Source: Psammoneis japonica (Eukaryota). Taken from it: a DNA stretch of 64,000 bases. The position numbers and the translations under genes are program-made. A model generated the notes under the pieces. It was not told the DNA's origin and ran no database searches. It saw only the letters and a program-made list of their open reading frames with translations. Location: NCBI GenBank assembly GCA_008632985.1, contig QPGO01000226.1, positions 1 to 64,000 of the forward strand, written 5' to 3'. Numbering within the stretch: position 1 is the stretch's first letter; every line of letters starts with the position of its first letter. This document shows positions 4,920 to 53,414 of the stretch, piece by piece.

Positions 4920-7900
4920 CAGAGGTGCATAAATCGTCTGTTGTCGTTCGCACCCGCGCATTCGCACACTCAGCGCGCGCACGAACGACAAAACGATGAG
5001 GTGGATCACGACGGTACTTCCGGCTGTGACGACGTGCCGTACCTGAGAGAATTTTTATGGGGCGAGAAGCGGTTCGATCGCCAAAATCTGCACACAACAA
5101 CACGACGCATCATCAACACATCATGCAGCTCTCTTTCGAAAGCAGAGCTGTGACACCTCGACTTGCTGCTTCCTTCTCCATCTACAACATCTGCTTCATT
5201 TGTGATGGCAAGCAAAGTGCAGCAGGACTGTTGGTTGTGGAGAAAACATGCAGTTTGGACTTACGACCTCAGTGTTTTTTTCTTTGTTGTTGCCGTCAGG
5301 TGTTTCGTCGTTGGCTTCTCTCAGGATGAATTTTGCCCGGCAATTGTGCGTTCCCGGCATCAAACATCTCCCAAGTTACAACATGTCAAAGGGGTCCGGC
5401 AGCGTCACAACTGCAGGTTGATCGAATCCGAGTGGGTTTGGTTGCATGACTTGTTTGGGTGTCACAAAACGGCGCGCAGTTCTCACAAGCTCGTTTTTTC
5501 CTGTTGTTGCAGTTTGTGGTTTGGTCAAATCAAAGCAGCACTCTCACGGACTCCATTTTCCATTTGTTGCACCATCACCACAGGAAGCATCTGTCAGTTG
5601 ATGGGTCTGAATTGGGTTGGTTTCAATTGTTGTTTGGGCGAAGCAAAATGGCACTCAGTTCTCACGTGCTCGCACTCTCTGCTTTTTACGGTTCATGGCT
5701 TGGATGGCTGCATGTCAAAGAATTGTTGCACTCTCACGGGCTCCATTGTCTGTTTGTTGTGCCATCACCACAGGAAGTGTCTGTCAGTTCATTCAACCCA
5801 AATTGCTTGGGTTGCATCGGTTGTTCTGGTGATTCAAAAAACGGCACGCCTGTCTTGTGAGCTTGCATTCTCTGCTTTTTACAGTTTGTGGCTTGGACAG
5901 CCACATGTTGAAGACACACACTCATGGACTCCATCATCCATTTCTTGTGCCATTGCCACAGGAAGCATCTGTCAGTTGATCTGTTCTGAAGTGGCTTGGT
6001 TGCATCTGTTGTTTGAGTGAAGCAAAATGGTGCGCGAGCCCCGCCGGTTTTGACAGCATGCAGAAGATAAATTCTCACGGACTGTGTTGTTCATTTCTTG
6101 TGCCATTGCCATGGGCATTGTCAATGAACCTGCTCCAGTTGAAGCTGGATGGACTGTTGTGTGTGCTTGCGCGGCAGTGTCAGTGTCTGCGGTTTTCTGT
6201 CCTTTTTGCGGATGAGACAGGACAGCTGTTTGTTGCTTCTTAACAATGCACAGCAATGAACAGCAAGGTGAGATTGAAAGGTGCATTGTTGTTGTTGCTC
6301 TCCTTTGCTGACATCCTCTTTTTTGTTCGCCCGTTTCGCCACTGCCTTCAATCCCTCCCACAATGCAACATCCACGGCTTTTGATGCATGCCTGCTGGTG
6401 TGTTCCTCCCAGAAATCATCAACGACTCGTGACACACGTGCAACAAATGTTTTTTGGACAATGAAGACGAAAAGGCTCTCGATTGTTTCATCGCACTCAC
6501 TGTTGCATGCGTTCTCTGGAATCGACATTGTGCGCCAGCAACGGACGTCAATTTTTCACCTGCGCCCATTCCCAGGCAACACAAGGACAGCACCAGTGGC
6601 TGACTTATGATTTGGGTGTGGACTGGAGTGCAGCAAAAAGATGCTTGTGTTGTCATGGTTAAGGTTTCTGGCTGCGGTTTGGGAATGACATCCCGACAAA
6701 ACAATGGAACGTCACTGGCTCGCTTTCGAACAACGTTTTCTTAGTTTGCGCTGCCGGTTCTTTCAAAGTGCTCTGCAAGATCCAATGGCTCCTTTGTCAA
6801 GTTGACTCATTTCATCATTGGTTTCTCGCACTGTTTGTGTGATCCGGAGTGGGGCTCCTTGCAGGCTCTTCATCTTCTTTGCACCTGGGAAACATTGATG
6901 CGAAGCATGATCGGGGAAAAGCCCGTGACTGTGTTGAGGGCATGTGGATGATGCTCCAACATGATGAGCCTGAAGACTGCATCCTTGCCAGTGAAGAAAC
7001 TCATGCTGTGTGGGAGTTTGTGGAGAAGGCATGCAGATGTTAGTTTAGACTAGAGTGGAGCTGCGCTGCCAAGCCAAAATTCTCAATTCCCAATCCAGAA
7101 TGACACAAACGAACTGCTTCCAGCACTCCCTCATGTCCCGTGAAATCTTTCTCGAAAGCCAGCCTCAACAGTGAGGACAGTTGCGCTTTGCAAGCAGCCC
7201 TGTCCACTTCTCTATTTTTTGTGCTGTTTTGTCCGTAACTTGCCGGCTCTGTCAAACTTGATGCAGCTCCTGAGGCAGTGACAACCCAAGTGTCTACAAA
7301 CAAGCAGCAAAATGGCAAGAGGCGGTCCAGAATGTTTCCATGCAATCCGTCGGTGCGTTCGCTCCATGGCACTTAAGATCCACCTTTTCTACATTCTCCA
7401 TCGTTGACGCGAAACAAAGTCTCAAGCCTCAAACCGGAGGAAAGTGCGTTCAGAATCATGCACAATGCCCATTCTGTGGGCAGTGTCTGCATCCATGGGT
7501 GCAGCAATGTTGCCAAATGCCCCTCCAGCACTGGGCAAAGGCTCTAACTGGACATGCCCTCCATCATCCACACTGAGGCGCATGGACTGCCTTGTTCCCA
7601 TCCTCTCCATCAATTTGAGGTAAAAATGATGCCTTGCAATGACCATTTCACCTTTTCCTTTGAACCCTCCCCAATCAGATGAACAAATGATGCTCTCAAC
7701 ACAACAGCAGATTTCTTTGTCCCATCTGGAACGCGACAACAACCCAACAACGGATGCGGCATTTGTGTGTCAATGCAGCACTTGGCAATGTCGGCAAAGT
7801 GCTTTTTGCATTCGATCCAATTGCATTGGCTCGGATCATGTGCCAGCAACTGTGACCTTGGAACATTGTACGGAGCATCTGATGTCAGTGTAAGTGATTG

Positions 7901-8139
7901 CGTTGTCGGGCATGGCAGAATGTGGACCCAAACTTGTCGTTTGGCACGCGTTGCGTCGCGGCGAATTTGCAAAAATTTGGAACTTTGCCCCATAAAAATT
8001 CTCTCACGTACAGCACGTCGTCACAGACGCTTTCGTAGCCCACCTGCGTCCGTGAGCCACCTCATCGGTTTGTCGTTCGCGCGTTGATTGCGCGCAAGGA
8101 AGCACACGCGCGGACGACAAGACGATTTATGCACCTCTG
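4920..8139. mobile_element. Decayed TIR DNA transposon (hAT-like termini); no recognisable transposase
   Basis: TIR CAGAGGTGCATAAATCGTC at 4920 and its reverse complement ending at 8139. Imperfect inverted similarity continues ~150 bp inward. Flanks ACCTACCC / CCGTACCC could be a degenerate 8-bp TSD. Confidence 0.75.
5460..6060. repeat. Degenerate ~190-bp tandem repeat, about 3 copies
   Basis: CAGGAAG(CA/TG)TCTGTCAGTT recurs at 5581, 5771 and 5959; AAAA(C/T)GG motif recurs near 5467, 5646, 5837 and 6024. Confidence 0.75.
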
Positions 8140-9632: not shown

Positions 9633-9869
9633 GGCGGGTCCGATCTCATGGATGATTTGTACGGTAATGATGAACGATGGACGGTGGAGGGCCGCACCAC
9701 ATTGGCATCGATCGCACATACATAGCATCACACATCATCCACATCCCAATCACACATCGCGCATGCACGCGCTCATAGACGAGAGACGAGAACTACGGTA
9801 ACAAGCAGCAGGCGCATGATGTTGTCGTCTACCGGCACCGGCAGGGGGGGAGGAACGATCGGCACAAAG

Positions 9870-12800
9870 CAGCAGCCACACATCTGTTGAAAGGATGGTG
9901 ATGGCACCCTCAAAGATGAGCAGCTGTCAGAAGCATCTTTTGTCATCGGCACTGCTTTTGTGGACAACCAAGTTCCTGTCCACACTGCCAGCAGCCTGCA
10001 TCTTTGCAAGGTTTGAACAAGAAGAAAGGTCAGTGCCGGAGCACACAAACGCTGCATGCTCACCTCTTTGTGGAAAGTGGTGGCTGAGAGTGCACTCAGC
10101 ACAGACAATGAAACTGAATCCAAGAAATGGCAACATGAGACAATGTGGAAGGCTGACCAATGCCTTGCCAATGAAACAGAAATTGCGGGACTTGACTGAC
10201 TCCCTGTTCAATGTCTGGGGACCTGCAGCCGCCGCCACCTGATGAGTGAGGACCAAAGAGAACATCCCATCTGGTGTTTTGGTTGCACCCACATTTTGCA
10301 AAGACCACTCACATGGCTTTCCTTTGAATCTCTGACAGATTCGTTGGAGGAAAATGTGCACCCGGAAAGGCACAAGTCATGCTTGACAAAAAGCAAGTGA
10401 AACAGTGAGTCCATGCTTTGTGCCTGTCAAGCAGACAAGACCTCAGAAACAGTGCAACATCAACACTCTTTCTCTTGCGTGCATTGCAGGGAGTCCTCTG
10501 GGTGCCAGCAAGAGCCTTGCAGTGTCCAAGGGTCTTGTGGGAAGCACATGCGCTGATGGCTGAACACTGGGCCGCGTGTGGGACCAATCTGCAGAAGAGA
10601 TGTCAATGCTGACTTCATCATTGCATGCATGCAGGTGCTGTTTGCCATCTTTGGTGAAATGCCATTTGAAGATGTGAAAGGAGCATTTGGGAAGTTCAAG
10701 TTCATGACCAGCAGCATTCAGAAGATCACACCACAATTGGTTGTCAGCCTGCATTTTGAAGGCCAAGTCGAATGATGAAGGTTGTGGGGATGCAGTGAAA
10801 TTGTTAACTTGCTTTGAAGTGTCATCAATGCATCTGGGGTTGTAAATTTTCATGGACACCGCATAATTGGGCAACTCAAAAAATGCTGCATGGGAATGTT
10901 GATCGAACATCTCAAAAAGGCTGTTGCAGATTTGGTTCCAACTAAAGGGAGAATTTCCACTGCCTTGGCCTGTGCCTTAAATTGGAAATTCAGCGGAATG
11001 AGAGTGTGATGATTCAGACAATCCAGTTGCAGTCTTCAACCAGTGTCATGCCTGCTGCAGGGTGTGGTTTGCTCCTGTCTGGGTGACCTCTTGTTTTGGC
11101 ATGCCATTGCTGTGACTCTTGTGAGCTGCCAGAGCTGGAATGTTCCAATCACAGCAAGAGGCACAATCATTGTCACTGTGGATGGCAGTTTTCCTGGATG
11201 CCCTGCTGATTTCAAGCATCAGCTCCTCAAGGTGCACTGGAGCATCAGCGTTCAAGAATGGTTGAGTGCTGCACATCCCTGGATTGGTGCAAAGCTTGCA
11301 TTGCTCCACATTCTGTGCAAGAGATCACCACATGACACTAGAAATCAACTGAAAGTCAGCTTTGTAAATGTGAGTGACATGCAATCAGTGGATCTTGTTG
11401 TTCCCAGCTTCTTTGAAGACCACAACATTGACGACATCTTTCTGTCAGTCACAGGAGTGTCCCCACCAGAGAGCACAGTTTAAAAGGTTCAGCCGCATTT
11501 GAGTGAGGGCATGTTGCACCACGTCCAAATGCTTGCAGTCTTCAGTTGGGTCACCATCCTGGGCAGTGGCCTGAGAATGGGAGTGTGATGCACACATGGC
11601 TTTCCAATGACCCAAACCAGGACCTGACTTGACAGAGGCAGATGCAGACTCAGTCCACATTTTAATCTTTCCTTCTAAATCTGTTGCTGTAAGAAAGGAA
11701 GAGACAGACACTGGAGAGAATGATGTTTGGGATGAAGCACAAACCGGGAAGCAGCTTCATTGAGTTGATCCATGTCACAGTCACCATCAAGAATGAGGTC
11801 TGCAGAGATTGCATCGCTGACGCAACCCAAGTCCACCAACAAAGGGGGAACAGCAGGGGAAGGGGGCACCGTGGGCCTGTCCAAAGTGTTTTTGATTGCA
11901 AAGTTGAAGAGCAGTGGTGACATCAATGGGAGCATTGATGGCAACCCATTCGTCACACTCTTTGGGGTTCACGGAGGGGTTGCAGGGCACCTGAATGCTG
12001 TTTGTCCCCATGTCACAATCTGCCTGGCAAAACTTGATCTTGCGGAAGAACTTCTTGATTTCTTTGGCTTTTCATGTGTTGTGCAAGAAAGACAGTGGCT
12101 TTCCTCCTGGAAGCCTTTGCACCTTCCAGTTCCAAGGCTGCAACATTCTCTGCCATCTCCCATTCTCCATGTGCAACACCAGCTGCTGCCACCTTCTGGC
12201 ATTCAGACTGGGCCACGCAAAGGGCTGCCTGACATTCCTCAAAGGTCTCAGGAATGATGAATGAGCCCTCAATCTCATTCCAAATGTTTCTGACATGGCT
12301 GACATGGTTGATGTGAGTGTGCATCATGGATGTGACTCTGCTCAAGATGTGAACTCTGTGTTGAAGCTGAGCAAGTTTGATGGGCCATTCTGGTTTTCAT
12401 GGTGTGTGCTTGACATTTCTTTGCTGCAGCCAGAGAAAATTGTAAAAGGTCTCTGTCTGGTCTCTCAGCCAACTTGTGATCAGGTGTGTCGAGTTCAAGA
12501 AGTGCTCTTGATCTGGACAGAATGTCCCGGCTTGCAAGCATGGGACCAATGGCATCGAGGTGCGTCATCACCTGAGGTTTTGAGGAAGACAGCATGTCTT
12601 GATTGCTGGCTTTCGGGTGATCAACAGTTGGGTTTCCAAACAGAGCCAATGTGTCAAAATCCACATGGCAAGCATGGTGATCAGAAGTGGCATGACACCC
12701 AAATGCCTTGTAACCTCCAAAATGAGCAGTGGCAAGGGCACCTGGGGTGGCAAGAATGCAGTCTAATTGCTTTGAATTTCAAGTGCATGTTGAAAGTTCT

Positions 12801-14600
12801 GTGTTGCCCATCAAGTTGAAGAGAACATCTGACAAATCAAACCACTGTGCAAGTAAAGCAGGAGACTCAGTGTCAACCGTAAAGTCCACATTGAAATCTC
12901 CGAAGAGGATTGCCTTGTGAATTTGGTCCACGAGAAAATCCTGGAGCAACCAAGATAAATCCAAGCAGAATGCTTTCTGAGGATCAGTGTTTTGATGGCC
13001 TTGTTGGTGCAATGATGATGCCTGCTGGGCATGTGCAGCAGTCCTGCTGGGAGTCTTTTGGTTCTTTGAACAAAGATGGTGGCACGACACAAACATGACT
13101 TGCAATCTGTTTTGTCTGTCATAAACTTGGATGGACCAGCAACCCAGGGTCAGATCCCTGACTCAAACATCTGGCAGAGATTGAGTTTCCTGAGAAAAGA
13201 GCTGTGCCTCCTGGCTTGTGTTGAGTGGTGAAAGGAGCAGAGCTGCATGAGAATGTGCTGCGACCATGACTTGTTGAGTTTTGAATGGCTGACCGACAAG
13301 TTGACAGAATGTCACACTGAGTGGTGTCCAGGCACACTTCTGAAATTCCAACTGCATCAGCTTGAATCTTGTTGGCAATCTGGCAATGGCCCAGAATGTC
13401 TCTGCCTCTTTTATCAAATTTGCACCCATTTGCGCTGAAGGCATGCAGTCTCATGTGATGAGGAAGCTTTGGTTGGAGATCATCACCAATTGACTCGTTT
13501 GTTTGCAGGTGAGAGAAATCAATGCAACGTTCTGCAGAGGGGCTGCAGCTTCCACCATCTAAAAGTGACTGCCAGGCTTATGCAGAAGAGTCACAGCAAA
13601 CGTCACTGCTCATGAGTGGGTCATGCTCCTCCAAGAAGAAGACTGGGGCTCAGAGCAATGCACAGAGTTGAGTGCAGGGAGAGGGACGAATTGCAGGGAC
13701 GAGAAGGACAAATTGTCAGCACCAAGAGGTGTGGCAAAAGACATGGGCAAGAGCAAGGGAAGTGGTGCCACGTGGAAGAACATCCAGAGGATGCCTGATT
13801 GTTTGTGGGGGTGGAGGTGGCAAAGTCCAACCCCTTTTCAAAAATGATTCTCCTTGTCACAAAGATCTCTGGAGTGATCTGGCATTTCCATGTTGTTTGG
13901 GCATTTTCCAGCAGAGCTCTGTGCAGTTTGACTTGCCTGCAGCAGTTGGACAATTTGATTCATTTGTGCCTGCTTGCCTGCCAGTTGCTGGGTGGGCTGT
14001 GACTGCAAGGCTGCCATGTCTTGGGTGTGTTGTTTGGCAAACACAGAGCTCAATGCCTCCATGTCCTGGGAGTGATGTTGGCAGAGCTCTTCCAAAGCCT
14101 TGTCATTTTTCTCTTGCATCTTGGACACTTTTGCCATTTGTGTCAAGCAAGGGAGGAGCTTGAGGTGGACTGTGCAGCTTGAGCACAGGAATGTTGGGGT
14201 GTTTTTCACCACTGCATGTGGCAGAAATTGCAAAGTGACATTCATGCTGTGGAGACGACACCCAATTGGTCACGTTGACATTCGTGATTTGGTTGTTGTG
14301 GTTGTCAAGGATCTTAACATCCTTGTGGTGAGTGAAGAGAATCTGCTGCAGGACTTGCAAAAGAGTGGTGACAAGGGTCATGGGCTCACACAATGCCTCT
14401 GGGCCATGAACATCAAAACGGATGGTGATCTCTTCAAAATGATGCTCTTTTGGCTTGGAAGCAGGCTTGAGGGATGAGTCATCCACAGTGACATCGTCTG
14501 CCATGGTGGAATTGTTGGGAGGAGCAGGGGTGTGGCTGCCATCAGTGACGGAAGAAGATGCCACAGTGGATGGCTGTTCTGTGGAGGACCTGGCATTGAA
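9870..14600 (-). mobile_element. Decayed non-LTR retrotransposon (APE endonuclease + RT; resembles diatom Ambal-type LINEs)
   Basis: APE remnants at ~13450-12800 (SANG, KPGGT, ILFGDFN). RT remnants at ~11650-10550 (LGHWKA, VNVMVFKEAGNNKIH, IYKAD, GTGQGSGNSP, CIDDT, LELPKC). ORF1 remnant ~14560-13800. Boundaries approximate; TpA-depleted sequence continues to ~15900. Confidence 0.8.
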
Positions 14601-15947
14601 AACATGCAGGCAGGTTCAATGCAAATGTGCGCAGAATTGTGCAGCAAGAACACAACAGATGAGCAGCACTTTGAAAAGTGCTGGAAGCTTCAAGTTGATT
14701 GATGCCATTGCTGCATTGTTGGTGCTTGTTGCGGATGAGAGATCATGATAGGCTTGGACACTTGGGCACACATTTGGAGAGGCTCCCAATGCTGTGATTG
14801 GTGCCTGACTGGTGTGTTGTTGATGTGCGGACATTGTTCCACCAATTCTGGCATGCCCTCCTCATCATTGTTGTCATTGCTGCACTTGTCAATGTCATGC
14901 TGGTTGTTGCAACACTTGTTGCTGTCACACTCAGCTTTTTCCACCTCCATTTGCTCAGTTGAGAGAAAAATTTTTTTGACTGAAGAACAGGGGCGCACAT
15001 TGCAATGGAGAAGTGTCTTGCTCCACGAGTGCCTCTTGTCTGGGTTATAAGTTAACATGTGGAGTGTCTCCACCCAAACATCTCCTTTTTCACCAATGCC
15101 TCTGCAGCAACACATGCCAAGCTCAAATTGTGTCTCCCTGCAGCTGGGATTGCCACAGCTGCAGAAGCAATTGTCCATCATTTTTGATTTGGCTTGTTGG
15201 ATGAAATGTTGGTGACGGTGTCAGCTTCTTGCTTCTGTTTGTCCAGTGGCACAGTTTTTCCATCCCAGCCCCCCATTGTAACCAAATGCCCACCTTGATC
15301 AACCAACAGCATGCAGATGCGAAGTTCAGCACACTTTTGGGAGCCTGGAATGGGGCGAATGTTGGCCACTTGGCCAATCACTGAATGAATGTTGACTCTC
15401 GCACTTGCCCGTGTGACAAAGTTGCTCCATGAAAAGTCAGCTCCATTTTGAAATGCCAGATGCCATGAACAATGCACCTGTGCATTCTTGCAAGACATTG
15501 GTTCAAAGAGCACACACCTTGTGTGTTTTGTGGCTCCAGCTGGAACATCCCAGAAATGACCTCAAACAGCCATTTTGTCATTTAAAAAGGAGTCATTCTG
15601 TGAAAATGCTTTGAACAAAAAGTCATTTTTAATGGATCACAAAGCACTTGATTGGTCATGGAAACAAGCATTGGGCATGGCGAATTTGTCCAACTGACGA
15701 CTTCAGTTGAAGTTTAAGAACAACCAATTGGAGAAATGGAACATCTTGTTCTTAGTGCCAGTCAGAAATTGACACCATGTGAGGTGTCAAAATTATTTCC
15801 AACACCATGTGTGGTGTCAAAATTTTTGTTTTAATGACATCATCTGCAAAAGTGCCTCATGAGCCCCAAATGACCATGTGGACGAATTCTGCACACTTGA
15901 AAACATGCATTTTCACACTTTGTTTGTGTTCCAGTCAAACAAATCTC

Positions 15948-18900
15948 GAGAATGATCATCACCACGTGTGTCTGCCCCTGACCGGGGACAGACCACTCCA
16001 TCCAAATTTGTTGGGTCCCCGCAAAATGGCAACGACAATGCCGATTCGTCTAAAACAAGTGACATCCTCTCACAAAGAGGCAAACCACAAAACCCAAATT
16101 AGACTGCCAGCCGAGCTGGCTTGGGAGGCCGGAGCACGTGGACGCAAGTCACAAGTGCCCGGCCCTGGTGTCAGGACCCCACCAAAAGATGCAAGAACAC
16201 AGTTTCCAATGCTGCTCTCCCATGACCATTTTCGTAAGTAGATCTGCCAAGTTCATTTCTGCACCCTCCTTTCCAACACAAATGACACCCGCTGCAACTG
16301 CCTCTCACACCACATGACAGTTGATGGCATTGTGCTTCTTGTGCAAAACCGATTCAGGAACACTCACATTCTTCACAACACCACGATTGTCACAAAAGAC
16401 ACTTGCTGGTCCTTTGAGTGGTGCTCCAAACATCCGCAACTTGTGTTGTAGAGCAACAATCAATTCCTTGCAAATCCGCATTGCGACCGACTCACTCCCA
16501 AACGTCGCTGACTCGACTGTGTTCTGCTGCTTGCTGAACCACATGATTGGTGCATTGTTGACAAATGTCAAGATTCCACTGTGAGACCTGTGAGTTACAA
16601 CATTGCCTGCATGGTCAGCATCAACAAAGGCACAGATGCTTGCCAGGTTGCCACAAGGCTTTGGTGCTTGCGGTGGCAGTTCCTCTTCAACGTCCCCATA
16701 AAACTCAGTCCAATCAGCACTCAAATTGAAAATGGACTCATCAATCACTGGCTCCTTTGGATCGAACCCAATGCGTCCGACATTCTGATGCTTCTTCACA
16801 TGCGCAAACACATGATGCAATGCTTCAAGGTGCCCCTTCCTTGGATTGGCTTGATGCTGGGACAGAATTGAGACTTCATGCAAGATGTCAATGTGGCCCA
16901 ACTCGATTGCCCAGTGGCAAATTCCCATCAACTGCAAGTGCCTGTCCATTAAATCCAGGCCCACCTTGTCAGTTACATCCAGCTCTGGTTTGCACCTCGG
17001 GGGCAAAGGATCCTTCACGCCATTCTTCAAAACTTCTCCATTCCCGTCCTCATCCAAGAGACCTTCTACGGTCTTGATCGCCATCTTGACGTGTGCTCTT
17101 GGGGAGCTCGCCCAAATTGTGCAACCATCCTTGGTTTGGACCTTTTCAACATTAGCTCCAAGGTGGACCTCTGGTTCTCCTTCACTGCCAGGCTTCACGG
17201 TAAAGTGCTCACCTGTGGCAGCAACAACAGACTTTCCCTGATGGGAGATGATTGGAATGTCGTTGACACAAACCAAAAGCATCTCACAATGCTTGTGCCC
17301 ATCCTCTTGGGTTGCTGCACACAGATGAACGCCAGGGTCCACTCTCATTGATTCAAAGCCCAAGTTGTGTAAGACCGATGCCAGTGCGGACCTCCAAGAG
17401 CATCCCGAGCTCTTCAGACCGCACAATGCCTGAGTGACATCAAGCACCTTTCCTTGGCATTTGCCACACTCCTTGCCACCTTCAAACCATGTCTTCTCTG
17501 CACACGGTGCATTCAAGTGCGCATTCTCCAGATCCATTGCCATGATGTCGACTCCATTCAAAGCTGCCAGCAGAAACCCCAGACGTGAGCTGTCTCTAGA
17601 AACGATGCTTGAGCATGTGATCAATGACAGAGCCTCTGTTGTGTGACCTCCTGCCACGAATCTTGCCTTCCTGGTAAAGTCCATCTTGACATCAAATGCC
17701 AGGTGGCACCTGATCTCCTGATGGCCACGCAGAGTTGCACTCTTTCCTTCCCGCACTGCCTGTGGGGTCTCAGCCTCATGCTCGCGCCATGCCACCTTTG
17801 CCATTTCCATCTCCCATGACAAACTGCCATCTTTCCAGCTGACCAGCAGCTTCCAACCCTTGGCAGCAATCCTCTTCTTCTCCTTCCCGTCAGTGGCATG
17901 CATGATTCCATCAGAGATTGGTGCAGCATTGCCCGTCTTGTTGTGATTCTGCATCTCATGCAAGACAGAGCATTGGTTGCCTTCACTGTTGACCTGAGCA
18001 AACACATTCTCAGCAACCACATTGGCCGCACACTTGTCTGTGGTGCCGTCAGTGCACTCCACTTCACACTCAAGAGTGTCAAACAATGGGTTTTGGTGTT
18101 GAGTTCCAATTGGACGCCCATCCTGTCCTCTTGCTCGTTTTGTCATGACACCTTGCCTCTCACCGTCGGTTCCAACATCAAACACAAGTTCCACACCCAA
18201 GCATTGATCTGTCGCTTGTTCGTCATCATCCTCTGGCCATTCATCTGACAACAACATGTCCCCGGCAAGCCCATGACAACTTCTATTGGGTTCCATGCAT
18301 CGCCGGTCAAGAGCATAACTGGTGAGTTCTGCTCCTCCCATTCTGTTGGAGAACACGAGATTTGAAAGATGCAATTGTCCCCTTTGCAGTGAAAGGGATG
18401 AAAGCCTCATCAGCTTCAATGCCAAAACCGTTTCGAGCATTGTAAGGGTTGTCATGTGCAGGCATGTTGTGCGCCCGCAACTGATTAAGGTTCAAGAGTG
18501 AATGTTCCATGCCCGTTCCAAACCAAAGCATCTGATTGCCAACCAGCAGATGTTCGCGAGTCGTTTCTGGATCCGTCCATGCAGTGCAACAATGTGCCAT
18601 GGGAACCTGTTTAATTGGCTCACAAGAGTCTAAAAATGGGTGAACTTCACACACTTTGTTTGTTGGCTCCATGAGTTTCCAATTTGCTCTGGCAAACACG
18701 CATCCACGTGAGCATCACATTCATTCTGAGCAACAAAATTGGGTGTCATCAAATTTGTCATTGGGGTGGAGCTTGTCAATCGAATCACATGTTTTGATGT
18801 CACAGCAATGCACCTCGTTGTTGCCGTTTCATTCAATTGATAAGATGGGTGGGGTTTGGGTGGCAGGAACAAGAACAATGCAGCCAAAACATACAAGCAC

Positions 18901-21079
18901 ACCACATGCGCCAAGATTCCAGTTGCTCCAACCACCCCCAGCAGGCAAGTGGAACTGTGACAAGCTCCACGACTGAAAGCACGACCGTTGCGTCTGCCAC
19001 AATCACGGTCAGCACCACAACCATTGCCGCTCACTTCATTCTGCACTTGTCTGTTCTGTGCACCTTGGCCCTCTTGGTGGATCTGGGCTTCGGCTGCATG
19101 CCTGCTGCCCCTGTCACATCTGCACCATCCTGCTGAAGAACCACGACCACCACCGCATCCTCCTTGTCCCACACATTCGCAAGCTTGGAAAACACAGTCA
19201 ACCCCTCCATTGAAATGGAGTTTGTCCCATTCCTGGGGGGAAAAACTTCTTGTGGGATCAGACACATTGACCCCGTTAATCTTGGTGGTGTGGTTGCCGC
19301 CTCCACCTTGGCCTTGACGTCTGCCGCATCCTCTGCATCCTCCGCCATGACCAAATCTACCTCCGTGACCACGGCCCCTTTGGAAACCTTGACCGCTGCC
19401 ACCACCATGGCTCAATTTGGAAATTTTTCATTTCGTGCAACGTCGGGCTTCTAACTGAGCATCTGTGTGCAAACAAGAGACTTTGGATGAGAAGAAAGCA
19501 CATGCCCCCGCGAAGTCTTGAGGGTGCTGACTGCTGACAACAGTCGTTGCTGCAATGAGACGAGGGTCATTGGACCGGATTCCTTTCAAAAGGATCTCCA
19601 CCTTCTGCTGTTCTGACTTGCGATCATCCGGGGTTTGTGCAAAGTGGCAAATGTGCTGGCAAGCTTTTCATTGAACTTTTCAAATGGGAGTGACCCTTCC
19701 TTCTTGTAAAACAGCGATTCAACAGTGGCCGTCACCAAGTGGATGCACTTGCCAAGCTTGCCCTGTCCATTGCAATGGTTGACCCATGCATTGAATGCTC
19801 CATGCCCATTCTCTGTTTCATTGAATGGTTCAATTCAAGCCCATCCAGCAGTGTCAATCAAGCATTCTTTCAACATGCGAAACATGCTGCGATTGTCCTC
19901 ATCAAATGCACTGCCATTCAATGGCAACTGATGCATGCACTCCTGTTGAGCATCCGCAAACTCAGCTGGCACTGGCATGGTCCTCACCACATGTCAAAGT
20001 GGCTCTTTCAATGTGCCAAACTTCTGTGCCAAAAGATTCAAGAAGCATCTTCACAGACATCAAAGTCCTTGGACTTAAATTTGACAAGACTGTTTGCCAA
20101 TGCATCCGATTCTGTGCGTTCCTTTTTGACACATTGACCGTTTTGAGCCGCAGCCATGGCTGCTGCGTTAAAGTCCACCGCAATGAGTGCTTGGTTCCTT
20201 TTCATGCAATCCTGGCACCACCACACTGGTGACTGTAAGTTCTTGATTTGAACAGTGCCAAGAATCACATGGCCGTCTTCCACAGTGCGACGAGCCGCCC
20301 TTTGCACCAAGTCTTCAACATCATGGTCGTTCTCCATGACAGCAATGTTTTCCAGGGTCGTAAACCCTTCATAGAAAACCAACCTTGCCCTTGCATTCTG
20401 GTCAACAACACCACAAACCTGTGATGCTGTGTCTGCATCAGCTGTCGTGGCTAGAGCCACAAGTGCCGCTGCTGGTGCTGCTGCCGCTGCCATCCCACAA
20501 TGAAGAAAATGTGAATGTCCCATGTGGGGGAGCACGCAGCTGTGAGTCTGCATGGTCATGGAGGCTGCACTTTTCTGGTGTTGTGACAACGGGTTCACAC
20601 AGCCACCCAACATCAGGATGATCAGTCCTGTGTCATTTGATTCGTTGAGCACGCGCTCAGGCGTGTCACCCAATGCCGCAGTCCCTTCACACCCATTGCA
20701 AATGTGAAGACAGTGACTGTCTTTGTGAGCATTTTCCATTGCAAGCTGTTCTGTGGATTACACAGGTGACACAAGATGCATCTTTGTGTGCATCAATCTG
20801 AATTCCAATGCAACGCGTGCAGTCAAACAATGAACAATCGTTCATGACGAATTGTTCTCACAACCGTTTTTGATCAGCATTTCACTGATGGCTCTGACAA
20901 AGTGAATAAATCTCAATGCAATGCAAGGACAAGTGCAATGCCTTGAGCCTGAGAGAAAGTAAAGATGCCATCAACGTGAACCCAAACCTGATTGGATTGT
21001 GGGAGAGAACAATCATCACCAGGCATGTCTGCCCCTGACCGGGGACAGACCACTCCATCCAAACTCATTTGCAGCAACA
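15948..21079 (-). mobile_element. Decayed, internally deleted Ty1/Copia LTR retrotransposon (CoDi-like)
   Basis: RT/RNase H in ORF 16305..18455 (DVKMDFTRKARFVAGGH, ALCGLKSSG, FVDADHAG, VESATFGSE, CDNRGVV). Protease remnant ~18720-18350; gag with Gly/Arg-rich tail ~20400-19000. ~60-bp direct repeat at ~15948-16006 and ~21005-21063. PBS-like CTTTGTCAGAGC (minus strand) at 20891-20902. Confidence 0.9.
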
Positions 21080-21099
21080 TCTGGTTGTGCCACAGTGGC

Positions 21100-22320
21100 A
21101 TTTGAAAGTGTGTGTTTTTGCTCAAAATTCCCGTGCAAACTGCCTCCACCATGGCATCTCATCCAGCATCCCCCCATTGCCAGAATGTTCCCTCCAATGA
21201 CCCACATCACCTGTGAACGTGCACAGAGACGAGACGGACATTGGCAAGAGTGACAAGCTGCAGAGCTCCCTGCAAACCAGCAACAGTGGATGACACGTGT
21301 GCCAGCAAGAAAGAGTGTCAGAAGCAGTTTTCAGAGAGATCCGCTCATCTGTCTGGGTCTGACCATCATCCATGCACTCGGCATGCTGACACAGAGAGAT
21401 CTGCTCATCTGCCTGGGTCTGACCATCATCCATGCACTCAGCATGCTGACACCATCCCCTGATCTGCAATGTCTTGCAAGACAATGCAGGTCACAAAGAA
21501 AGAAGAAATGCAAAAGCACACCACACCCAACATGAAAACAACCTTGCCAATGGAAAGGTGCTGTGGCAAAACGGGTGATGCAAGAAATGGCCAAGCTTGC
21601 AATGCACAAAGAATTCACAAGCAAAGGACAACAATGTCTTCACAAAGTCTCTGATGGCAGAGCAGGGCATGTGCACTGATCCATTGAAGCCTTTGACAAA
21701 AAAGTCAATGGCAGTTTCCAACAAATCTTGCAGGTCAATCGAGTGTTGAGCCAAAGAACAGCTCCGTCAATCAACAAGCAACAAAAAAAGAGCAAGGGAT
21801 GCTCTGGCAAGTCACAATGTTGCTGAGTCTCATCTGGCAAAATGGGGCTGGATAGAAATTCACCATGGCATGTAATGCATCAAAAAGGAAGTGACAGCAG
21901 CCCATCAGACAAAAGAGCACTTCTGCCACATTTTGTTTTGAGTCTCCATGTGCCGCTCTGCAGCATGATGGAATCTAAAATCGTTTCACAGAGCTTCTTG
22001 CACCTCTGGCTGAAGGGAGATGAACAATGTTGGGTGGACTGAGTTGAGGATTTTCTTCTGGCTGATGCTGCTGGATTGTCTCAACTGCTGCTGCCTCTGC
22101 TGCGGAAATGACGACGATCGCCGCTTCCCCAGTGCTTCGAGGCCAAACTCATCTGCCACGATGATCACACTGGGAAAAAAGACCAAATCACCACCAGAAG
22201 CAAGTGTTGCAGTGGAGACTGCTGAGGCAGATGCAGCAGCAAAACAAAAACAGCAACTGCGACAATGACACAATGACAACAGCAGACTCAGGCACCGCCA
22301 TGTTCTACACACATGCATGC
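21100..22320. mobile_element. Unclassified decayed repeat
   Basis: Same TpA/CpG-depleted, TG/CA-rich composition as the adjacent TEs; no domain recognised. Confidence 0.4.
21332..21451. repeat. 60-bp tandem duplication, 2 copies
   Basis: Units start at 21332 and 21392; three differences, two of them CpG to TpG/CpA. Confidence 0.9.
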
Positions 22321-22633
22321 AGAAAACATTTCATTTCCCTCCACGTTGAACTTTGCGAGCGAAGACGATCGCACGATGGACAGAAATTTCGCGCTCATGA
22401 CCTGTTTCGTAGAATCCTATCCAATTTTCACATGCGTGATTTTTCTACCAGAGTTCTACAGACAATTTTTGGCGCGAAACTAAATAAACAGCTTCAGTGA
22501 CGAAGAATAACATAACAACTACAAAGATGAGAGGCGCACCCAGCACACACAAACAACGCGTTGCATCTCTCACTTGACGACTCTGTTGCAATCGCTTCTC
22601 TCTTGACAACAACAACAATAAAACCAAAACGCC

Positions 22634-25600
22634 ATGAGTCGCCGTGTCTTTGGACAAGCCATGAAGGGCGGTCCATCCAAGTACCAGCGTCAAATGGGAC
22701 ACGGACATTCCAAACGAGAGGCAGAAAAGAACGAGCAAGAACTGGAAGCTCAACGCCGTGCCGAGTATCGTCGTAAACGCTATGCTCAAGGTGAAGCCAT
22801 TGACGTCAAGTTTGGGTATGAACGATACAATCACACTACTTCCACGGAACCGAGTCGTCGTGGATGGCTATTCAACATGTTGCCGACGGTAAGTCAATAA
22901 CACTATGCATATATGAATTATGGGAATCAAAATAGAGCTCATACTGTATGTTTCTTATACGCTTGTTATTTATCCACAGACAATTGCGTCGGGTGCTTCT
23001 GGTGGCAGTGGAGGAGATGATGGCTCTCCGGCTGGTCCAGAACGTGCCGGATTGGACTTGTATTTTCGTACCGAGTCGGGCTCAACCTTTAAAAGCTCCG
23101 TGCTGTACGATCCGTACTTTTATGTCATTCCCGCTGTTACCGGAGACGATTATGCGGTACAATTTGAAGCGCTCATTTCGATTCTCTTGAGAAAATATGA
23201 AGCTTACGGTCTCTCCAAGGTGGACGTGGTTCCCATGTTGGATCTAGATCAGCCCAACCATTTGGATCCAAGATTGCGTCACGGACGGCCCATGCTCAAG
23301 CTGGTCTTTAGCAATGTCCAGCAACTCATGGAAGTCCGCAAGCCTCTCAAGGAATTGATTCAAAACAATCAGAAACTTCAACAAGAACGAGCCATGCGTT
23401 TTGATGCAATCGAAGCTGTATCCCAAAACATCTTGGACACCTTGGTGGACATTCGAGAGTACGACGTGCCCTATTTGGTGCGCGTTTGTACCGACTTGAA
23501 CATTCGCGCCGGGGCGTGGTACACGGTGACGCCCAATCCACACGACACGGGCGTCACCCTGAGTGATCAAGATGTCGAAACCAAGGCCAATCCATCCTTT
23601 TTGGCTTTTGACATTGAGTGTACCAAGGCGCCGCTCAAGTTTCCCGATGCGGCCGTCGATTCCATCTTTATGATATCCTACATGGTCAATGGACGAGGCT
23701 ATCTGGTTTTGTCTCGCAGTGTCGTGTCACAGGATGTGACTGACTTTGAGTACACGCCCAAACCGTCCTATCCCGGGCCCTTTACCATTTTCAACGAAGA
23801 GTCGGAAGAAGCGCTCTTGAAACGATTCTTTGCCGAATACCAAAAGCACAGTCCGCAAATTGTCGTGACGTATAACGGAGACTTTTTCGATTGGCCCTTT
23901 GTGGAAAAGCGCGCTGCCTTGTATGGACTGGATATCTACAGTGAAATGGGAGTGGAGCGTATTGGAGATGGCGAATACCGGGGGAGATGCAGTGTTCACT
24001 TGGATGCGTTTCATTGGGTGCAACGGGATTCCTACCTGCCACAGGGCGCACAAGGTCTCAAGGCGGTGACAAAGTACAAGCTTGGATATGATCCAGTCGA
24101 GGTGGACCCGGAAGATATGGTGCGATTTGCGCAAGAACGACCGGTCCACATGGCGACCTATTCTGTGTCGGACGCTGTGGCGACCTTTTATCTCTACGAA
24201 AAGTATGTTCACATGTTTATCTTTTCCCTTTGCACCATTATTCCCATGGGACCCGAAGATGTCTTGCGTAAGGGAGTGGCACTCTGTGTGAAACATTACT
24301 CATGGTTCAAGCGGCAAACAAGAATATCATTTGTCCCAATAAGCAAGTTGACGCCTTGGCCAAGTTTCACAATGGGCATTTACTGGAAGGTGAAACGTAT
24401 ATCGGTGGCAAGGTGGAGTGTCTCGAGACGGGTGTCTACCGTTCGGACGTGGAGTACAAGTTTGATTTGAAACCGAGCGCGTTTCAGGGTTTGATTGACA
24501 ATGTTGATCGGGATCTTACCTTTGCTATTGAAGTGGAGGGTGGAATGGATCGGACCGAGATTTGCAACTATGATGAGGTAAGCTCATGTTGATTATTGTT
24601 TTCTAGGTTTTAGCATTGCACTCACGTTATTCTCTTTTCTTTTTCTTTCAGATTCGTTGTCAGATTGTCGAGCAGCTCGAGATGCTTCGCGACCGACCCA
24701 ATCGGGTGGAGAAGCCATATGTTTACCATTTGGACGTTGGTGCCATGTACCCAAACATTATTCTAACCAACCGCCTACAACCGGGAGCCATTGTGGACGA
24801 CGCTACCTGTGCCTCGTGTACCTTTAATCAATCCAAGAATGACTGCAAACGCAAGATGGACTGGGTATGGCGTGGTGACTACAGCCCTGCCACCAAGAAT
24901 GAGTACGACCGTACCAAAGACCAGCTCTCTCGCGAGACCCTTTCCGATGGCAGACATTTTCATGAGCTGGACGACAAGGAGAAGGCCGGGTTGGTTGCCA
25001 GCCGTCTCAAGACCTACGCACGGAATGCTTATAAGAAAACCAAGGTGACAGAGGAAGTGACCCGCACCGACACGGTCTGCATGCGAGACAATGACTTTTA
25101 TGTGGATACGGTGCGGCAGTTTCGTGATCGTCGTTACGAGTACAAGAAAATGACCAAGACTTGGAAAAAGCAAGTTGGCAAGGCGACGGACCCATCGTCG
25201 AAAAAGGAGGCCGAGGACAAGGCTTTGGTGTACGACTCGCTTCAAGTCGCCCACAAGTGTATCCTCAACAGTTTCTACGGATATGTCATGAGGAAGGGAG
25301 CGCGCTGGCGTTCCATGGAGATGGCTGGCATTGTCACGAAGTTTGGCGCTGACTTGATTACGCAAGCTCGAGTGTTGGTGGAACAGATTGGTAGGCCGTT
25401 GGAGCTCGACACTGATGGTATTTGGTGCATCCTACCAAAGAGCTTTCCAGACGTGTACAATTTCAAGACGGTGGACGGGTCCACCTTCAAACTGGAGTAT
25501 CCGTGTGTCATGCTGAATGCTGACGTGCACGACAACTTTACAAACCATCAGTATCAAACCCTCAAGGATCCGGAGCGCGGTATTTACGAGAGCAGAAGCG

Positions 25601-28600
25601 AATGCTCCATTTTCTTTGAAGTTGACGGCCCCTATCGTTGCATGGTCCTTCCGGCCAGTACCGAAGAAGGGGAAGCTTTTGAAGAAGCGATACGCCGTAT
25701 TCAACTTTGACGGTTCACTTGCCGAGCTAAAGGGATTTGAGCTGAAGCGACGAGGAGAACTTGAGTTGATTAAGACTTTCCAGTCGCAGGTGTTTGAACG
25801 ATTTCTCGATGGAAACTCTCTTGCCGAATGTTACGATAGCGTTGCGGAAGTTGCTAATCATTGGATCGACGTGTTGGATACACGTGGTGAAAGCCTCGAG
25901 ACGGACGAGCTCGTCGACCTCATTAGCGAGAACCGAAGCATGAGTCGCCAGCTGGAAGACTACGGCGACCAAAAGGGAACTTCGCAGACCACGGCGAGAC
26001 GTCTTGGAGAGTTTTTGGGAGCGGAGATCATCAAGGATAAGGGTCTTAACTGCAAGTTTATCATCGCAGAGCAGCCGTATGGTCTCCCAGTGACGGAGCG
26101 TGCCATCCCAACTGCTATTTGGAAAGCCGAGCCCGCAGTTATGAAGCATTACCTGCGAAAGTGGCTTAAAGCACCCGGTCTCAACGACGACGACTTTGAC
26201 ATTAGAAATGTACTGGACTGGGAATACTACGCGGATCGTTTGGGGAAAACTATTCAGAAGATTATCACTATCCCGGCTGCGCTGCAAAAGGTGTCCAACC
26301 CCGTGCCGCGTGTGCCCCATCCGGCGTGGCTGGATGCAAAGGTCAAGCAGCTGAATGATCGCTTCCAGCAACAAAGTATTTTGAGCATGCTTACGGTCAA
26401 GCCGGTGGTGAAGAAGGCAGCAGCTCCGGCGTTGGGAGATATGGAAGATTTTGGCTCAACTGGTAACCGTTCAAAGCGCCCCGTCGTTCATGCTGCACGA
26501 CGAACTGAACGCGTTACGGCTCAGAAGTCCCCGGAAAAGGCCACCGATACCACAAGCAATGCCCGTATAGAGCTGTCTCAAGAAAATTTTGGTGGCTGGC
26601 TCAAGCATAAGAAAGCTCAATGGCGAAGTAACAGAAAACGCCTGAAGCAAAGTGGCAACAGCTCTACGCGGAAAGGATATCCTGCAATCGCGAGCGCCGT
26701 ACAACCTGCAAAGAAGCCTAAGCATCAAGTCAGCAGCATGGAAGGATACATACGAGATGCTACTTTGGCCCGTAACCGACACGAGTGGCATGTCATTGAA
26801 GCTCGTGAGTTATCCAAGTCAGAAACTGGTTTGTCATCAAACGGAGAGTTTCTGCTGTGGGTCATGGTGGGAAATGAATCGCTCCTCAAGGTACATGTGA
26901 ACGTCCCCCGTGTTTTGTACGTCACAACGCTTCAAGAGATCACGCATGATTCTGCTAACATCATTTCGATGAAGCGATTAGAGAAGCATCTGCCACAGGG
27001 AAAGAGCTCAGCATTCACATACGAGATTGCAATGTCGGAGCACGTTTACAGAAACAAGAAACGGTCTAAATATCTACGTCCCGTCACTTCAGCTGGGATC
27101 GAGGACGAGTCGTCGCGCCGCGAGGCTGTCCTAGAGAGCATATATGAAACTGGGACTCCATTGATGTTCCGTACGTTAATGGATTTGGGATGCGTGCTCA
27201 GACTCTCACCATCTGCCGCGTCCCAAGACAGGAATCGCAAGTCTTACGCATTGTCGGATTTACAGCGCGTCAACCGTCCGGCCGAAGGAGAGTATCTTAG
27301 CAAACATATGGCGTACAAACGAATCTTTATTTATGTCGCTACGAATACAAAGTTCAAGACAGGAATCGTGGCCATGTTCGAGATGGACGGTGGCAAAGGA
27401 GAAAACAGGCCTGATGTGACACGGCCAGATATGCTTGAGAAACAGAGTTTTCAAATGAATTCATCCTTGACGGTATGGGTAGTTAAGCCAGGGTCTTCCC
27501 GAGGGCAGAAGAACTTATCAATCAAGAACTGCGAATCCTTGTTCGCGCAGCTACTGGAAACGATCACGGACCTTTCGAATGAAGCGGAGGCTTCCGGCCA
27601 GAAGTCTGAGTACAGCAGTCTATCCCCCGGGAGCTACTGTAACATTTCGGAGTTGAAGTTTGTCGACAGTGACAAGCAAGCGTTTTCCGGCGTCAACGAG
27701 GTGCTCAGCTCGTACGGCCAATCTAATCAAGGTCCTACATTTGTGCTCCTCAATAGCAGCAAACCGTTGCCGTACCTCCGTCGCGCAGTTCCAAGTTTCA
27801 ATTCGTTCCCGATCATCAGTTTGCCTTTTCCACCTGGTCCTACCCACAACCCTTCTTCGATGAATCTGCCCGCATTGAATTGGGAGCCAACGGCAGTGCA
27901 GCTCTGCATGGAAGCATACTTCTACATGGGCGTTGTTTCCTTCCCCAAGCGCGTCTCTTATGCCAGATATGGGCAGGTGCCGGTTGGAAATCTCGATCAA
28001 GATGAAACTGTTACATTGTACGACGTTGGATTTGGTCGCCAGCTCCAAATAACTCGGACTATATCGTGGGCAAGCGCGACTCATCCTGACTTTGGAATAT
28101 CGTTTCTCCAAGGTGATTGCGAAACCGATGAAACTTCCAACCTTTCGAACCAAAACGAAATTTGGGGCGACGATGATGAGCTCATAGTCCGGTTGTTCGT
28201 CATCCTGGCTCTTATCGTTGTGTTTGCGCTGAAATCGATATACAAGACCTGGCAATTGCTGCCCTGACGGATGCTGCTGCTGCCGCTACTCTTCCTTCTG
28301 CTATGAGCCAAGCGGGCAACCCTACGTCACCGAGCAGCGTTACCATGTTTGATTCCTCATTTGACGGAATGAATTCCAAGGCTGCGGGACCCCTGGGGGA
28401 CGAAATGTCAACATCCGTATCACTTCCGATTCTGCGTGTATTAATCGGAGCTTGGCTTCACGACGCCTTCGAAGCAAACAGTCAAGTTGCAGACGACATG
28501 CTCCATAACGTGTATCGTCTTGTGTCGATGCCAGAGCCACTATTGAACGACCCTGCTCTCCATCGAGTGATCCATCTCGTTGATGAAAGCGACTTTCTTT

Positions 28601-29866
28601 CGACTTCTTGGTGAACTGCAAAGACTTGGTTGTCATATCGTTTGTGCGACATTTCGCAAGGTGATAGTCGCTACGAATAAGAGTAGCCTCTCCGACGCTG
28701 AGGAGTATGTCAACTTTGTCATTTCTACGATTCGAAATCGAAGCGGAGCATCCGAGGGTAACCCGATGCTTGCAGGACTAGGTCGCATTGAGTTGCGTGC
28801 AAGCACCTACTTCTCGCAATATCTCTTTCTTGACGAATACAACTACGGTGGGATTCATCTCGAGCGCCGTCAGCTGGAGGAGGGCGAAGAAATCGATTGG
28901 TTGATTCCAAGTGAAGACGAGGGCGGTATGCCAATCGTCCCAACGGTGGTAAGCGGCTGGAACATGATGCATTATTTAGGGAGCGAAATTGCGCAAGAGT
29001 ACTTCCGAATCATTATTGGTCGCTTTTCCAAGGATGTTCTCCGGAAGCAGATTCACCCTGAGGAGCGAGATGAAAACGTTATGTTGGAGGACGACGCTCT
29101 AAATAATTACAAGAGGAAATTGATATCCAAGCACTTTGCTAACTACCTGACCAGAGCTGTGGGAGAGATCGAAGAGGAGGGAGGAGGGCCGGAAAGTTTT
29201 CCAGAATTACCCGGATCGCATCTCGTGCTCACCAATCCTACCTTGGAATTCATCAAGAGCGTCATGGTTGTATTGGAATTGGATTCCGACGTACAAAAGG
29301 AAGTACACGTATTGAAGAAGAGCTTGCTAGCTCAGACAGGGTTAAGGAATATTCCAATGCTGCCAAGTGGGAAAATCCTTGCGCCTCTTTCGTCTTACCT
29401 GACGTGTTTTGTATGGAGTGTCATGAATGTCGTGACGTGAATCTCTGTGATCTACCGCCACTGAATGAAGAAGAGAGAACTCAATTGGTAAGTCTCGTGG
29501 ACAGAACTTGTAATCGTTAGTGGCGTGTCTACAGTGTATCTCATGTGGTCGACTCCTTCTTCGTTACAGAGACAGTGGGAATGTGAAGACTGCGGCACCC
29601 CGTACGATTCGCAGGACATAGAACGAAGACTTGTAGATCTTTGCAATCGAAAAGCCATTCGTTATCAGTTGCAGGATGTGCGGTGCACCAAGACTGGTGC
29701 AGTTGGGACGAGAGCCATGTCACGGCAATCCGATTGTTCGGCTGAGCTACAGCTGGACATCCCTCGGGAACAGGCACTGTCGCAGTTGAAGATTATCAAT
29801 AATCTTGCTTCGTTTCATGGCTTGGAATGGTTGGCCGAAATGACGCAAGAGCTGCTCAAACTCTGA
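22634..29866 (+). CDS. POLE: DNA polymerase epsilon catalytic subunit
   Basis: Exonuclease motifs AFDIECTK and YNGDFFDWPF; polymerase motifs YHLDVGAMYPNIILTN, KCILNSFYGY and ELDTDG; C-terminal Cys motifs. Introns 22889-22979, 24578-24651, 29488-29569. About five single-base frameshifts (~24272, 25670, 28187, 28578, 29340). Confidence 0.97.
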
Positions 29867-32277: not shown

Positions 32278-32529
32278 GGTTCAAGACTCTTTTCCTCGGA
32301 TGAGAAAAATGCAGATATGCATGTGTGCTTCTTGCGATCCAGTTGACTTATGTTCCATGGTGCCATGCTGGCAATCAATGTACCGGCACAGTTTTTGGGG
32401 GAAAAAGAAGAAACGGCAAAATGAGTGACGTTTCTGTCGCAGTCATTCGCGCAATGCAGCGCGGGGGTGCGACGTCCAGACGGCCTTTAAGATTTGTGTG
32501 TATGTGTGTGCAGTCAATGCGGTTTTCAT

Positions 32530-38585: not shown

Positions 38586-38698
38586 NNNNNNNNNNNNNNN
38601 NNNNNNNNNNNNNNNNNNNNNNNNNNNNNNNNNNNNNNNNNNNNNNNNNNNNNNNNNNNNNNNNNNNNNNNNNNNNNNNNNNNNNNNNNNNNNNNNNN
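38586..38698. other. Assembly gap (N run)
   Basis: 113 consecutive N. Confidence 1.
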
Positions 38699-44390: not shown

Positions 44391-44531
44391 TGATTCGCAT
44401 TTTTAAATTTAGGGAGGCATCCTGCAATCCCTAAAATTCTTATCTTCTCAATTTAGAAATTACTTTCTAAAAATACCAATCAAGAACATCCTACTCACCA
44501 CCACACTTTGTCCACTCTACAGGAATGAAAC

Positions 44532-53400: not shown

Positions 53401-53414
53401 CTCAGCACATTCAT

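Follow-up and report, generated by a model that had tools for sequence, protein, structure and literature searches.

Flank-dependent survival of TpA dinucleotides in TA-poor islands of the diatom Psammoneis japonica

A stretch of 64,000 nucleotides from the diatom Psammoneis japonica (NCBI GenBank assembly GCA_008632985.1, contig QPGO01000226.1, positions 1 to 64,000 of the forward strand; hereafter the window) was found to contain islands in which the dinucleotide TpA (TA) is strongly depleted. What removed the TAs from these islands, and why did a few of them remain? A first, sequence-only reading of the window had noticed that the TAs left in a long interspersed nuclear element (LINE) at 10790–13600 were almost always preceded by T or followed by A. 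It had proposed that a TA is efficiently hit only in the symmetric context VTAB (V, any base but T; B, any base but A), by an enzyme or a DNA-shape preference rather than by general drift. In our study, we found that the survival of TA depends on its flanks, that the lost TAs were changed to TG or CA, and that the two strands were affected in balance. We consider it probable that a DNA-level process, restricted to repeat or foreign DNA, rewrote the TpA of dead diatom transposons to TpG or CpA under a flank rule that acts strand by strand.

Flanks of the surviving TAs

The window was segmented by a two-state first-order dinucleotide hidden Markov model with six retraining rounds. Eight islands of 29,380 bp (46% of the window) were obtained, and the other 34,620 bp formed a host-like background. 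The observed/expected (o/e) ratios of the islands ranged from 0.03 to 0.16 for TA, from 0.22 to 0.56 for CG and from 1.5 to 1.9 for TG and CA, at a GC content of 0.48–0.54; those of the larger background segments were ~0.6 for TA, ~1.0 for CG and ~1.1 for TG and CA. The borders were sharp, and at all 16 of them the TA count changed within ~100 bp, i.e., about one of the 100-bp bins. The segment 10790–13600 contained 21 TAs, with o/e ratios of 0.11 for TA, 0.18 for CG, 1.73 for TG and 1.75 for CA.

In this segment, 20 of the 21 TAs were present in TTA or TAA (16 with one such flank and 4 in TTAA). The hexamers agreed with those listed before, and the rare exception noticed near 11339 was the single one, ACTAGA at 11339. 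Over the whole window, TTA or TAA accounted for 121 of the 151 island TAs and for 554 of the 1420 background TAs. The islands contained 30 VTAB, 89 one-flank (TTAB or VTAA) and 32 TTAA sites, whereas the background contained 866, 504, and 50, respectively. With the host baseline, the density ratios were 0.041 for VTAB, 0.208 for the one-flank sites and 0.754 for TTAA. A transposable-element (TE) baseline, formed by 57 unmutated metagenome relatives of Copia (224 kb), gave 0.041, 0.189, and 0.373, respectively.

The three classes differed between islands and background (chi2 = 142, p = 1.5e-31), and the flank effect was also present against the TE baseline (p = 3e-23). When the NTAN tetramers of the islands were counted against those of the rest, a uniform depletion over all contexts was rejected (deviance 181.7, 9 degrees of freedom (df), p = 2e-34), which agrees with the earlier suggestion of an enzyme-like preference and not of general drift. 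A first-order Markov model of the islands expected 74 VTAB, 63 one-flank and 13.5 TTAA sites, against the observed 30, 89, and 32 (p = 3e-14); the background departed from its own Markov expectation in the opposite direction. Normalization by the transition-invariant pyrimidine-purine step left the picture unchanged, and the VTAB share of the TAs was at most 31% in each of the eight islands. The survival of TA is confirmed to depend on the flanks far beyond chance.

On the sense (minus) strand of island 2 (9862–22344), the one-flank survivors were 34 TTAB and 10 VTAA sites, compared with 119 and 75 in the host genes (p = 0.055). This strand bias was dropped as evidence, because the host genes are skewed likewise.

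Dead transposons and the direction of change

The islands are, judged by their sequence, dead transposon copies, namely a LINE, a Copia element and unclassified repeats. The LINE is a degraded non-LTR (LTR, long terminal repeat) retrotransposon located at 10069–13544 on the minus strand, mapped by its homologues, and it contained frameshifts and CGA-to-TGA stops. Its open reading frame (ORF) at 10446–10976 (minus strand) had 486 homologues at E ≤0.001, and all of the 150 listed homologues were placed by tblastn at 10069–13544 on the minus strand. These homologues were ~2000 amino acids long, and seven of the eight scanned carried at least one of the domains Exo_endo_phos (APE endonuclease), RVT_1, RNase_H, and zf-RVT, so that the earlier LINE label holds. 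The Copia label was borne out by an RVT_2 match. The pol region of the Copia-type retrotransposon was found at 16128–18702 on the minus strand, with an ORF at 16305–18491 that had 477 homologues at E ≤1e-5 (best identity 65%), Copia elements of Fragilaria crotonensis included. The Copia region was flanked by a pair of direct repeats on the plus strand, 15948–16006 and 21005–21063, which were 91.5% identical, contained no TA and are possibly a fragment of the LTR.

Island 2, which holds both elements, is repeated DNA, because 1005 contigs of one public run (X1) matched it at a likeness of at least 80%. These contigs varied at 2033 places, with 1519 transitions and 514 transversions. In the window compared with itself by blastn, neither the LINE nor Copia was found a second time, and the 120 Copia homologues revealed a single locus only in a tblastn search of the window. 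No transposon domain was found by Pfam (E up to 0.5) in the 108 other island ORFs of at least 100 amino acids; such transposons escape domain searches because tyrosine, isoleucine and other TA-bearing codons were rewritten.

The Copia ORF was aligned to 120 homologues, and the columns in which at least 60% of the homologues agree were kept. In the window copy, 95 of the 405 conserved columns were altered, and the commonest changes were Y to C (9) followed by Y to H (8). Only 1 of the 20 conserved tyrosine columns retained tyrosine (codon TAT after TTT). In the LINE, the 22 conserved-tyrosine codons were read as 8 Cys, 5 His, 2 Tyr (both tTAC), and 7 other residues, so that the 42 columns of both elements contained 17 Cys (TGY), 13 His (CAY), and 3 Tyr. 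Other frequent changes also matched TA to CA or TG: V to A (GCA), I to T (ACA), I to M (ATG), and ATN to GTN in codons preceded by t. The changes of R to Q, H, C or stop in Copia and the LINE matched CpG decay. The direction of change was read from fixed differences and not from newly arisen mutations.

Tyrosine content was normal in 118 of the 120 Copia homologues, and TA depletion was found in none of the 57 metagenome relatives (TA o/e 0.61–0.89). Since the homologues and relatives keep their tyrosines and TAs, the islands were once normal and were then rewritten from TA to TG or CA; the loss does not reflect their native composition. One of the 120 homologues, the ENA protein P0149, is a second hypermutated Copia, with a tyrosine fraction of 0.003; its conserved tyrosine columns contain 2 Y next to 5 C and 10 H. 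It is 57% identical to the window Copia. The outcomes differed at 7 of the 14 tyrosine columns in which both carry Tyr, Cys or His, and P0149 was therefore struck independently.

The few tyrosines that were kept followed the flank rule. Tyrosine remained in 3 of the 9 conserved columns preceded by T and in none of the 33 preceded by V (Fisher p = 0.007). It had been claimed that the remaining tyrosine codons of the TE proteins follow a T, and all six in-frame ones that persist in the Copia ORF and in the pieces of the LINE ORF did so, including ttT TAT (EFYGD) and atT TAC (IYN). The GFY site at 59401 in island 8 reads GGT TTT TAT, as claimed; the DIRS-like label that it had been given is tentative.

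Both strands were affected in equal measure. Sense A-to-G changes (17 Cys) and sense T-to-C changes (13 His) were balanced (binomial p = 0.58), and the two outcomes alternated randomly along Copia and the LINE (runs tests, z = −0.24 and 0.52). The products summed over the islands were balanced likewise, with 3154 TG and 3237 CA. Because the strands are balanced and the outcomes unordered, the process most likely consisted of many separate events on DNA that was double-stranded and probably integrated. Local skews of the products were present at 13862–14861 (147 TG, 91 CA) and at 56616–58615 (205 TG, 296 CA), which could be due to ancestral composition or to a local strand bias of the process.

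The loss of CG was found to follow a different pattern. CpG decay is the deamination of 5-methylcytosine in methylated transposons, and it cannot remove TpA. It accounts for the CG loss to TG and CA in the islands, where the flank dependence was weak (NCGN ratios 0.27–0.66). The loss was somewhat stronger after T (TCGN 0.27–0.33, against 0.66 for CCGC and GCGG and 0.51 for ACGT). Two of the metagenome Copia relatives (L051 and L054) had CG o/e ratios of 0.14 and 0.18 at a GC content of 0.36–0.37, yet their TA o/e ratios were 0.68–0.70. On account of this weak flank dependence and of the CG loss without TA loss in the two relatives, the CG loss is separate from the TA loss, and it was presumably driven by methylation. 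One enzyme for both losses, acting on A and C after a T, was ruled out, TC being undepleted (o/e 1.10) and the flank dependence of CG weak.

Half-sites and the proposed process

The surviving TAs and their products suggest the following process. An activity restricted to repeat or foreign DNA would make A:T to G:C transitions at TpA, and ordinary CpG decay would have worked on the same islands. Each strand would be handled separately, and about two bases beyond the dinucleotide would be read. In terms of the adenine, 5′-T-A-N would be targeted with N = T > C > G as the order of preference and scarcely when N = A, and an A at +2 would be partly protective. In terms of the thymine, the same rule would read 5′-N-T-A, with N = A > G > C >> T. 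The half-site reactions would then be T-A-B to T-G-B, or V-T-A to V-C-A, and TA would persist mainly where one or both strands show a protected half-site. TTA, TAA, and especially TTAA would remain because one or both of their strands carry such a half-site.

The fits of survival were consistent with two half-sites. A two-parameter model of independent half-sites, with f(T) = 0.91 and f(V) = 0.21, described the data like a free model of the three classes (logL −40.4 vs. −39.8; host baseline). A four-parameter model improved the fit, in which the half-site survival by preceding base was 0.11 for A, 0.22 for G, 0.33 for C and 0.92 for T. The base at −2 was also informative (likelihood-ratio p = 1e-12), and T was protective at that position; the half-site survival was 0.61 for TCTA and 0.46 for TGTA and at most 0.26 in the other NSTA contexts.

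The sequence-only reading had taken VTAB as a symmetric unit. A palindrome of 4 bp recognized as a whole, for instance by an enzyme that is dimeric or reads the duplex or by way of DNA shape, with TTAB and VTAA as poor substrates, is in our judgment rather unlikely. It would explain why VTAB is scarcer than the multiplied survivals of two half-sites predict (by a factor of 1.4 against the host baseline and of 2.3 against the TE baseline), and why GTAC and ATAT were found 0 times in the islands and 119 and 114 times, respectively, in the background. However, the one-flank sites have also lost ~80% of their TAs, the two-parameter independent model equals the free class model with the host baseline, and the products of TTAB loss were one-sided with both baselines: TTGB was gained, and TCAB was not. 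With the host baseline the gain of TTGB was 0.85 of the loss of TTAB (95% bootstrap 0.68–1.03; none of the 1000 replicates at or below 0.5). With the TE baseline the gain exceeded the loss (share >1), and none of 500 replicates was at or below 0.5. Likewise, His arose at 0 of the 9 conserved tyrosine columns preceded by T and at 13 of the 33 preceded by V, and no change of L to S via TCA was found in Copia or the LINE. The strong flank dependence thus stands, and the symmetric VTAB rule was too strict. The data are best explained by a strand-wise rule of 3–4 nucleotides, which acts on both strands.

Several observations weigh against the strand-wise rule as fitted. The survival ratios rest on proxy baselines, which disagree on TTAA (0.75 vs. 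0.37), and the TE baseline is clearly imperfect since its product share is >1; the direction of TTAB loss is robust. The four-parameter multiplicative model left a residual deviance of 20.1 (6 df, p = 0.003), with 0 GTAC against ~5 expected and 40 GTAA/TTAC against 28. The extra depletion of VTAB goes beyond strict independence, and besides the half-site rule there may be some synergy between both strands. When the mutated tyrosines preceded by T were taken alone, 3 Cys and 0 His are not significant (p = 0.17). Two changes of N to D at tGAC in Copia would be A-to-G changes in a T-A-A context. In addition, the sole ADAT2 with measured DNA activity, BjADAT2 of amphioxus, prefers GAA and not T-A-B; in the part of the report available, its DNA contexts were 5′-GAA for adenine and 5′-TCG for cytosine (PMC10354150). 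Like the process proposed here, this adenine deaminase of a tRNA-editing family is able to give A:T to G:C in DNA, but the islands require a 5′ T and are protected by a 3′ A. This mismatch may leave room for another deaminase of the same fold.

We infer an enzymatic and strand-wise process, which would have acted on integrated or double-stranded DNA. The agent would be a base-modifying enzyme. One candidate is a DNA adenine deaminase, which turns adenine into inosine that is then read as G; the other is a route of thymine modification that leads to mispairing with G. The sequence alone cannot separate adenine deamination from thymine modification.

There is a slim chance that the hypermutation was blind to the flanks and that the excess of TTA and TAA arose later, through new TAs in T/A-rich surroundings or selection on motifs. 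The islands are old and carry many other substitutions, such as the 95 altered columns among the 405 conserved ones of Copia, and the present TAs may not all be original. However, the TG and CA of the islands, from which a new TA arises by a single change, were near-even over the flank classes, and random re-creation of TA would give ~56% VTAB and not 20%. The kept tyrosine codons stand at anciently conserved tyrosine columns and are thus survivors, selection is unlikely in dead copies with stops and frameshifts, and the pattern recurred in all eight islands. Editing of the retroelement RNA or first-strand cDNA before integration (by ADAR-like or APOBEC-like logic), followed by copying into the genome, would suit the two classified elements, both retrotransposons, and the sharp borders at the element ends, but we regard it as scarcely probable, because it predicts a single sense direction, whereas 17 A-to-G and 13 T-to-C changes without runs and an overall balance of TG and CA were found in place of the one-directional sense-strand change, and because integrated sequence of DNA viruses in Bigelowiella natans acquires this signature de novo, as far as the preprint was available (10.64898/2026.01.13.699255).

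Islands, host genes and known systems

The eight islands differed in length and in the depth of TA loss; their counts are given here in the order VTAB/one-flank/TTAA. Island 1 (5081–7868) had o/e ratios of 0.11 for TA and 0.56 for CG (5/12/3), followed by island 2 with 0.09 and 0.31 (13/44/16), island 3 (32504–33588) with 0.06 and 0.35 (1/2/1), and island 4 (42828–44392) with 0.03 and 0.22 (0/1/1). Island 5 (46915–48199) had 0.07 and 0.28 (1/2/2), island 6 (50456–53433) had 0.08 and 0.44 (3/8/4), island 7 (53949–55370) had 0.16 and 0.54 (4/9/0), and island 8 (56616–62389) had 0.06 and 0.31 (3/11/5), respectively. The TA loss was deepest in island 4, the plus strand of which was strongly purine-rich (A 485, G 581, C 267, T 232); neither a Pfam domain nor a tandem repeat was found in it. 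Island 1 was bracketed by inverted repeats at 4920–5063 and 7987–8139, and island 7 by inverted repeats at 53769–53911 and 55598–55742, with identities of 75% and 88% for the two pairs. The arms were not depleted (CG o/e 1.2–1.6, TA o/e 0.23–0.58) and may represent terminal inverted repeats, or else foldback arms, spared from rewriting. Island 7 also contained a tandem repeat of ~180 bp at 54006–54540, with copies 80–87% identical. A run of 113 N at 38586–38698 and a single N at 62819 are probably assembly gaps.

The background contained genes with long open frames, encoding DNA polymerase epsilon, subtilases, a methyltransferase, and a carotenoid-isomerase-like oxidase. The closest named relatives of the oxidase were from the diatoms Bacillariaceae sp. 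(83% identity) and Nitzschia inconspicua (77%), so that this gene points to a Bacillariaceae-like host, a raphid pennate diatom or something closely related. The catalytic subunit of DNA polymerase epsilon was found at 22917–29440 on the plus strand, in four long frames with short interruptions, and the host genes of the window were intron-poor. In the host ORFs the TA o/e ratio was ~0.6 and the NTAN spectrum normal, with 370 VTAB, 194 one-flank and 19 TTAA sites. The rewriting of TA was limited to the mobile-element islands, and the host genes were spared.

Defence of the genome by targeted hypermutation is known where cytosine is the target, in repeat-induced point mutation (RIP) and in APOBEC editing. 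RIP of fungi changes C to T at CpA, which makes TpA and raises the AT content of repeats. The islands resemble RIP in a dinucleotide-specific transition hypermutation of repeats and transposons with sharp limits and destroyed coding capacity, but TpA is here destroyed ~10-fold, CpA and TpG are made, and the GC content is near 0.49. Editing of the APOBEC3/AID type changes C to U on one cDNA strand and leaves a strand-asymmetric G-to-A signature. It shares with the islands a context-specific, deaminase-type hypermutation against mobile DNA, whereas the islands changed from A:T to G:C with balanced strands (17 vs. 13). Eukaryotic N6-adenine methylation at ApT has the motif VATB. The likeness to VTAB is formal only: both are self-complementary dinucleotides with V and B flanks, but the core there is ApT and the outcome is methylation of the base rather than mutation.

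The one account so far of hypermutation of TpA alone is a 2026 preprint on B. natans, and the diatom case is of the same kind and far more advanced. According to the available part of the preprint, 231 of the 302 new mutations in mutation-accumulation lines of B. natans were present within two integrated viral regions (Mettrop et al., bioRxiv 10.64898/2026.01.13.699255). In these regions, 230 of the 231 mutations were A-to-G or T-to-C, and all of these GC-biased ones were on TpA. The B. natans genome also contains TpA-poor, CpA- and TpG-rich clusters enriched for reverse transcriptase and DDE domains, and an ADAT2-like DNA adenine deaminase has been proposed, for which ADAT2 of amphioxus is cited as the precedent (same source). 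The main text of the preprint contains no analysis of flanks, context, trinucleotides, tetranucleotides or CpG; its supplements may hold flank data.

As in that account of B. natans, the changes in the diatom islands were near-exclusively A-to-G and T-to-C transitions on TpA giving TpG and CpA, they affected both strands, and they were confined to foreign-derived regions. The differences, again as far as the preprint was available, are that B. natans is a chlorarachniophyte (Rhizaria) with viral DNA as the target, whereas the host here is a diatom and the targets are retrotransposons. The depletion is deeper here, with a TA o/e ratio of ~0.08 against 0.45 for the region of nucleocytoplasmic large DNA virus origin in B. 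natans, and CpG is co-depleted in the diatom islands. The de novo rate in the B. natans region was raised ~1000-fold, whereas the diatom case is read from fixed sequence differences. No report of a TpA hypermutation signature in diatoms was found in the literature searched, the coverage of which left out most subscription journals. A dinoflagellate host with 5-hydroxymethyluracil was rejected as an explanation, the host being a diatom. For 5-hydroxymethyluracil together with diatoms, only dinoflagellate papers were found among the matches listed.

The flank fingerprint, in which T-A-T > T-A-C > T-A-G >> T-A-A with an effect of the −2/+2 base on each strand, appears to be new. The 231 de novo mutations of Bigelowiella offer a direct comparison for it, and candidate enzymes, whether deaminase-fold or thymine-modifying, can be retained or discarded by it. 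The flank rule is also a simple annotation aid for spotting hypermutated DNA in algal genomes. The same signature on the retrotransposons of a diatom, a member of a group of major marine primary producers, suggests a widespread process. Tentatively, diatoms may possess a genome-defence enzyme that rewrites the TpA of transposon or viral DNA strand by strand with T-A-Y-type specificity, and it may belong to the same ancient system as that of Bigelowiella, an immunity spread over the stramenopiles, alveolates and Rhizaria (SAR); this wider proposal is possible and still doubtful. If it were true, a SAR-wide immunity would run chemically opposite to RIP and APOBEC, its enzymatic fingerprint would be the half-site rule (a 3′ A fully and an A at +2 partly protective), and the system would naturally provide a context-specific editor of DNA adenine (or thymine).

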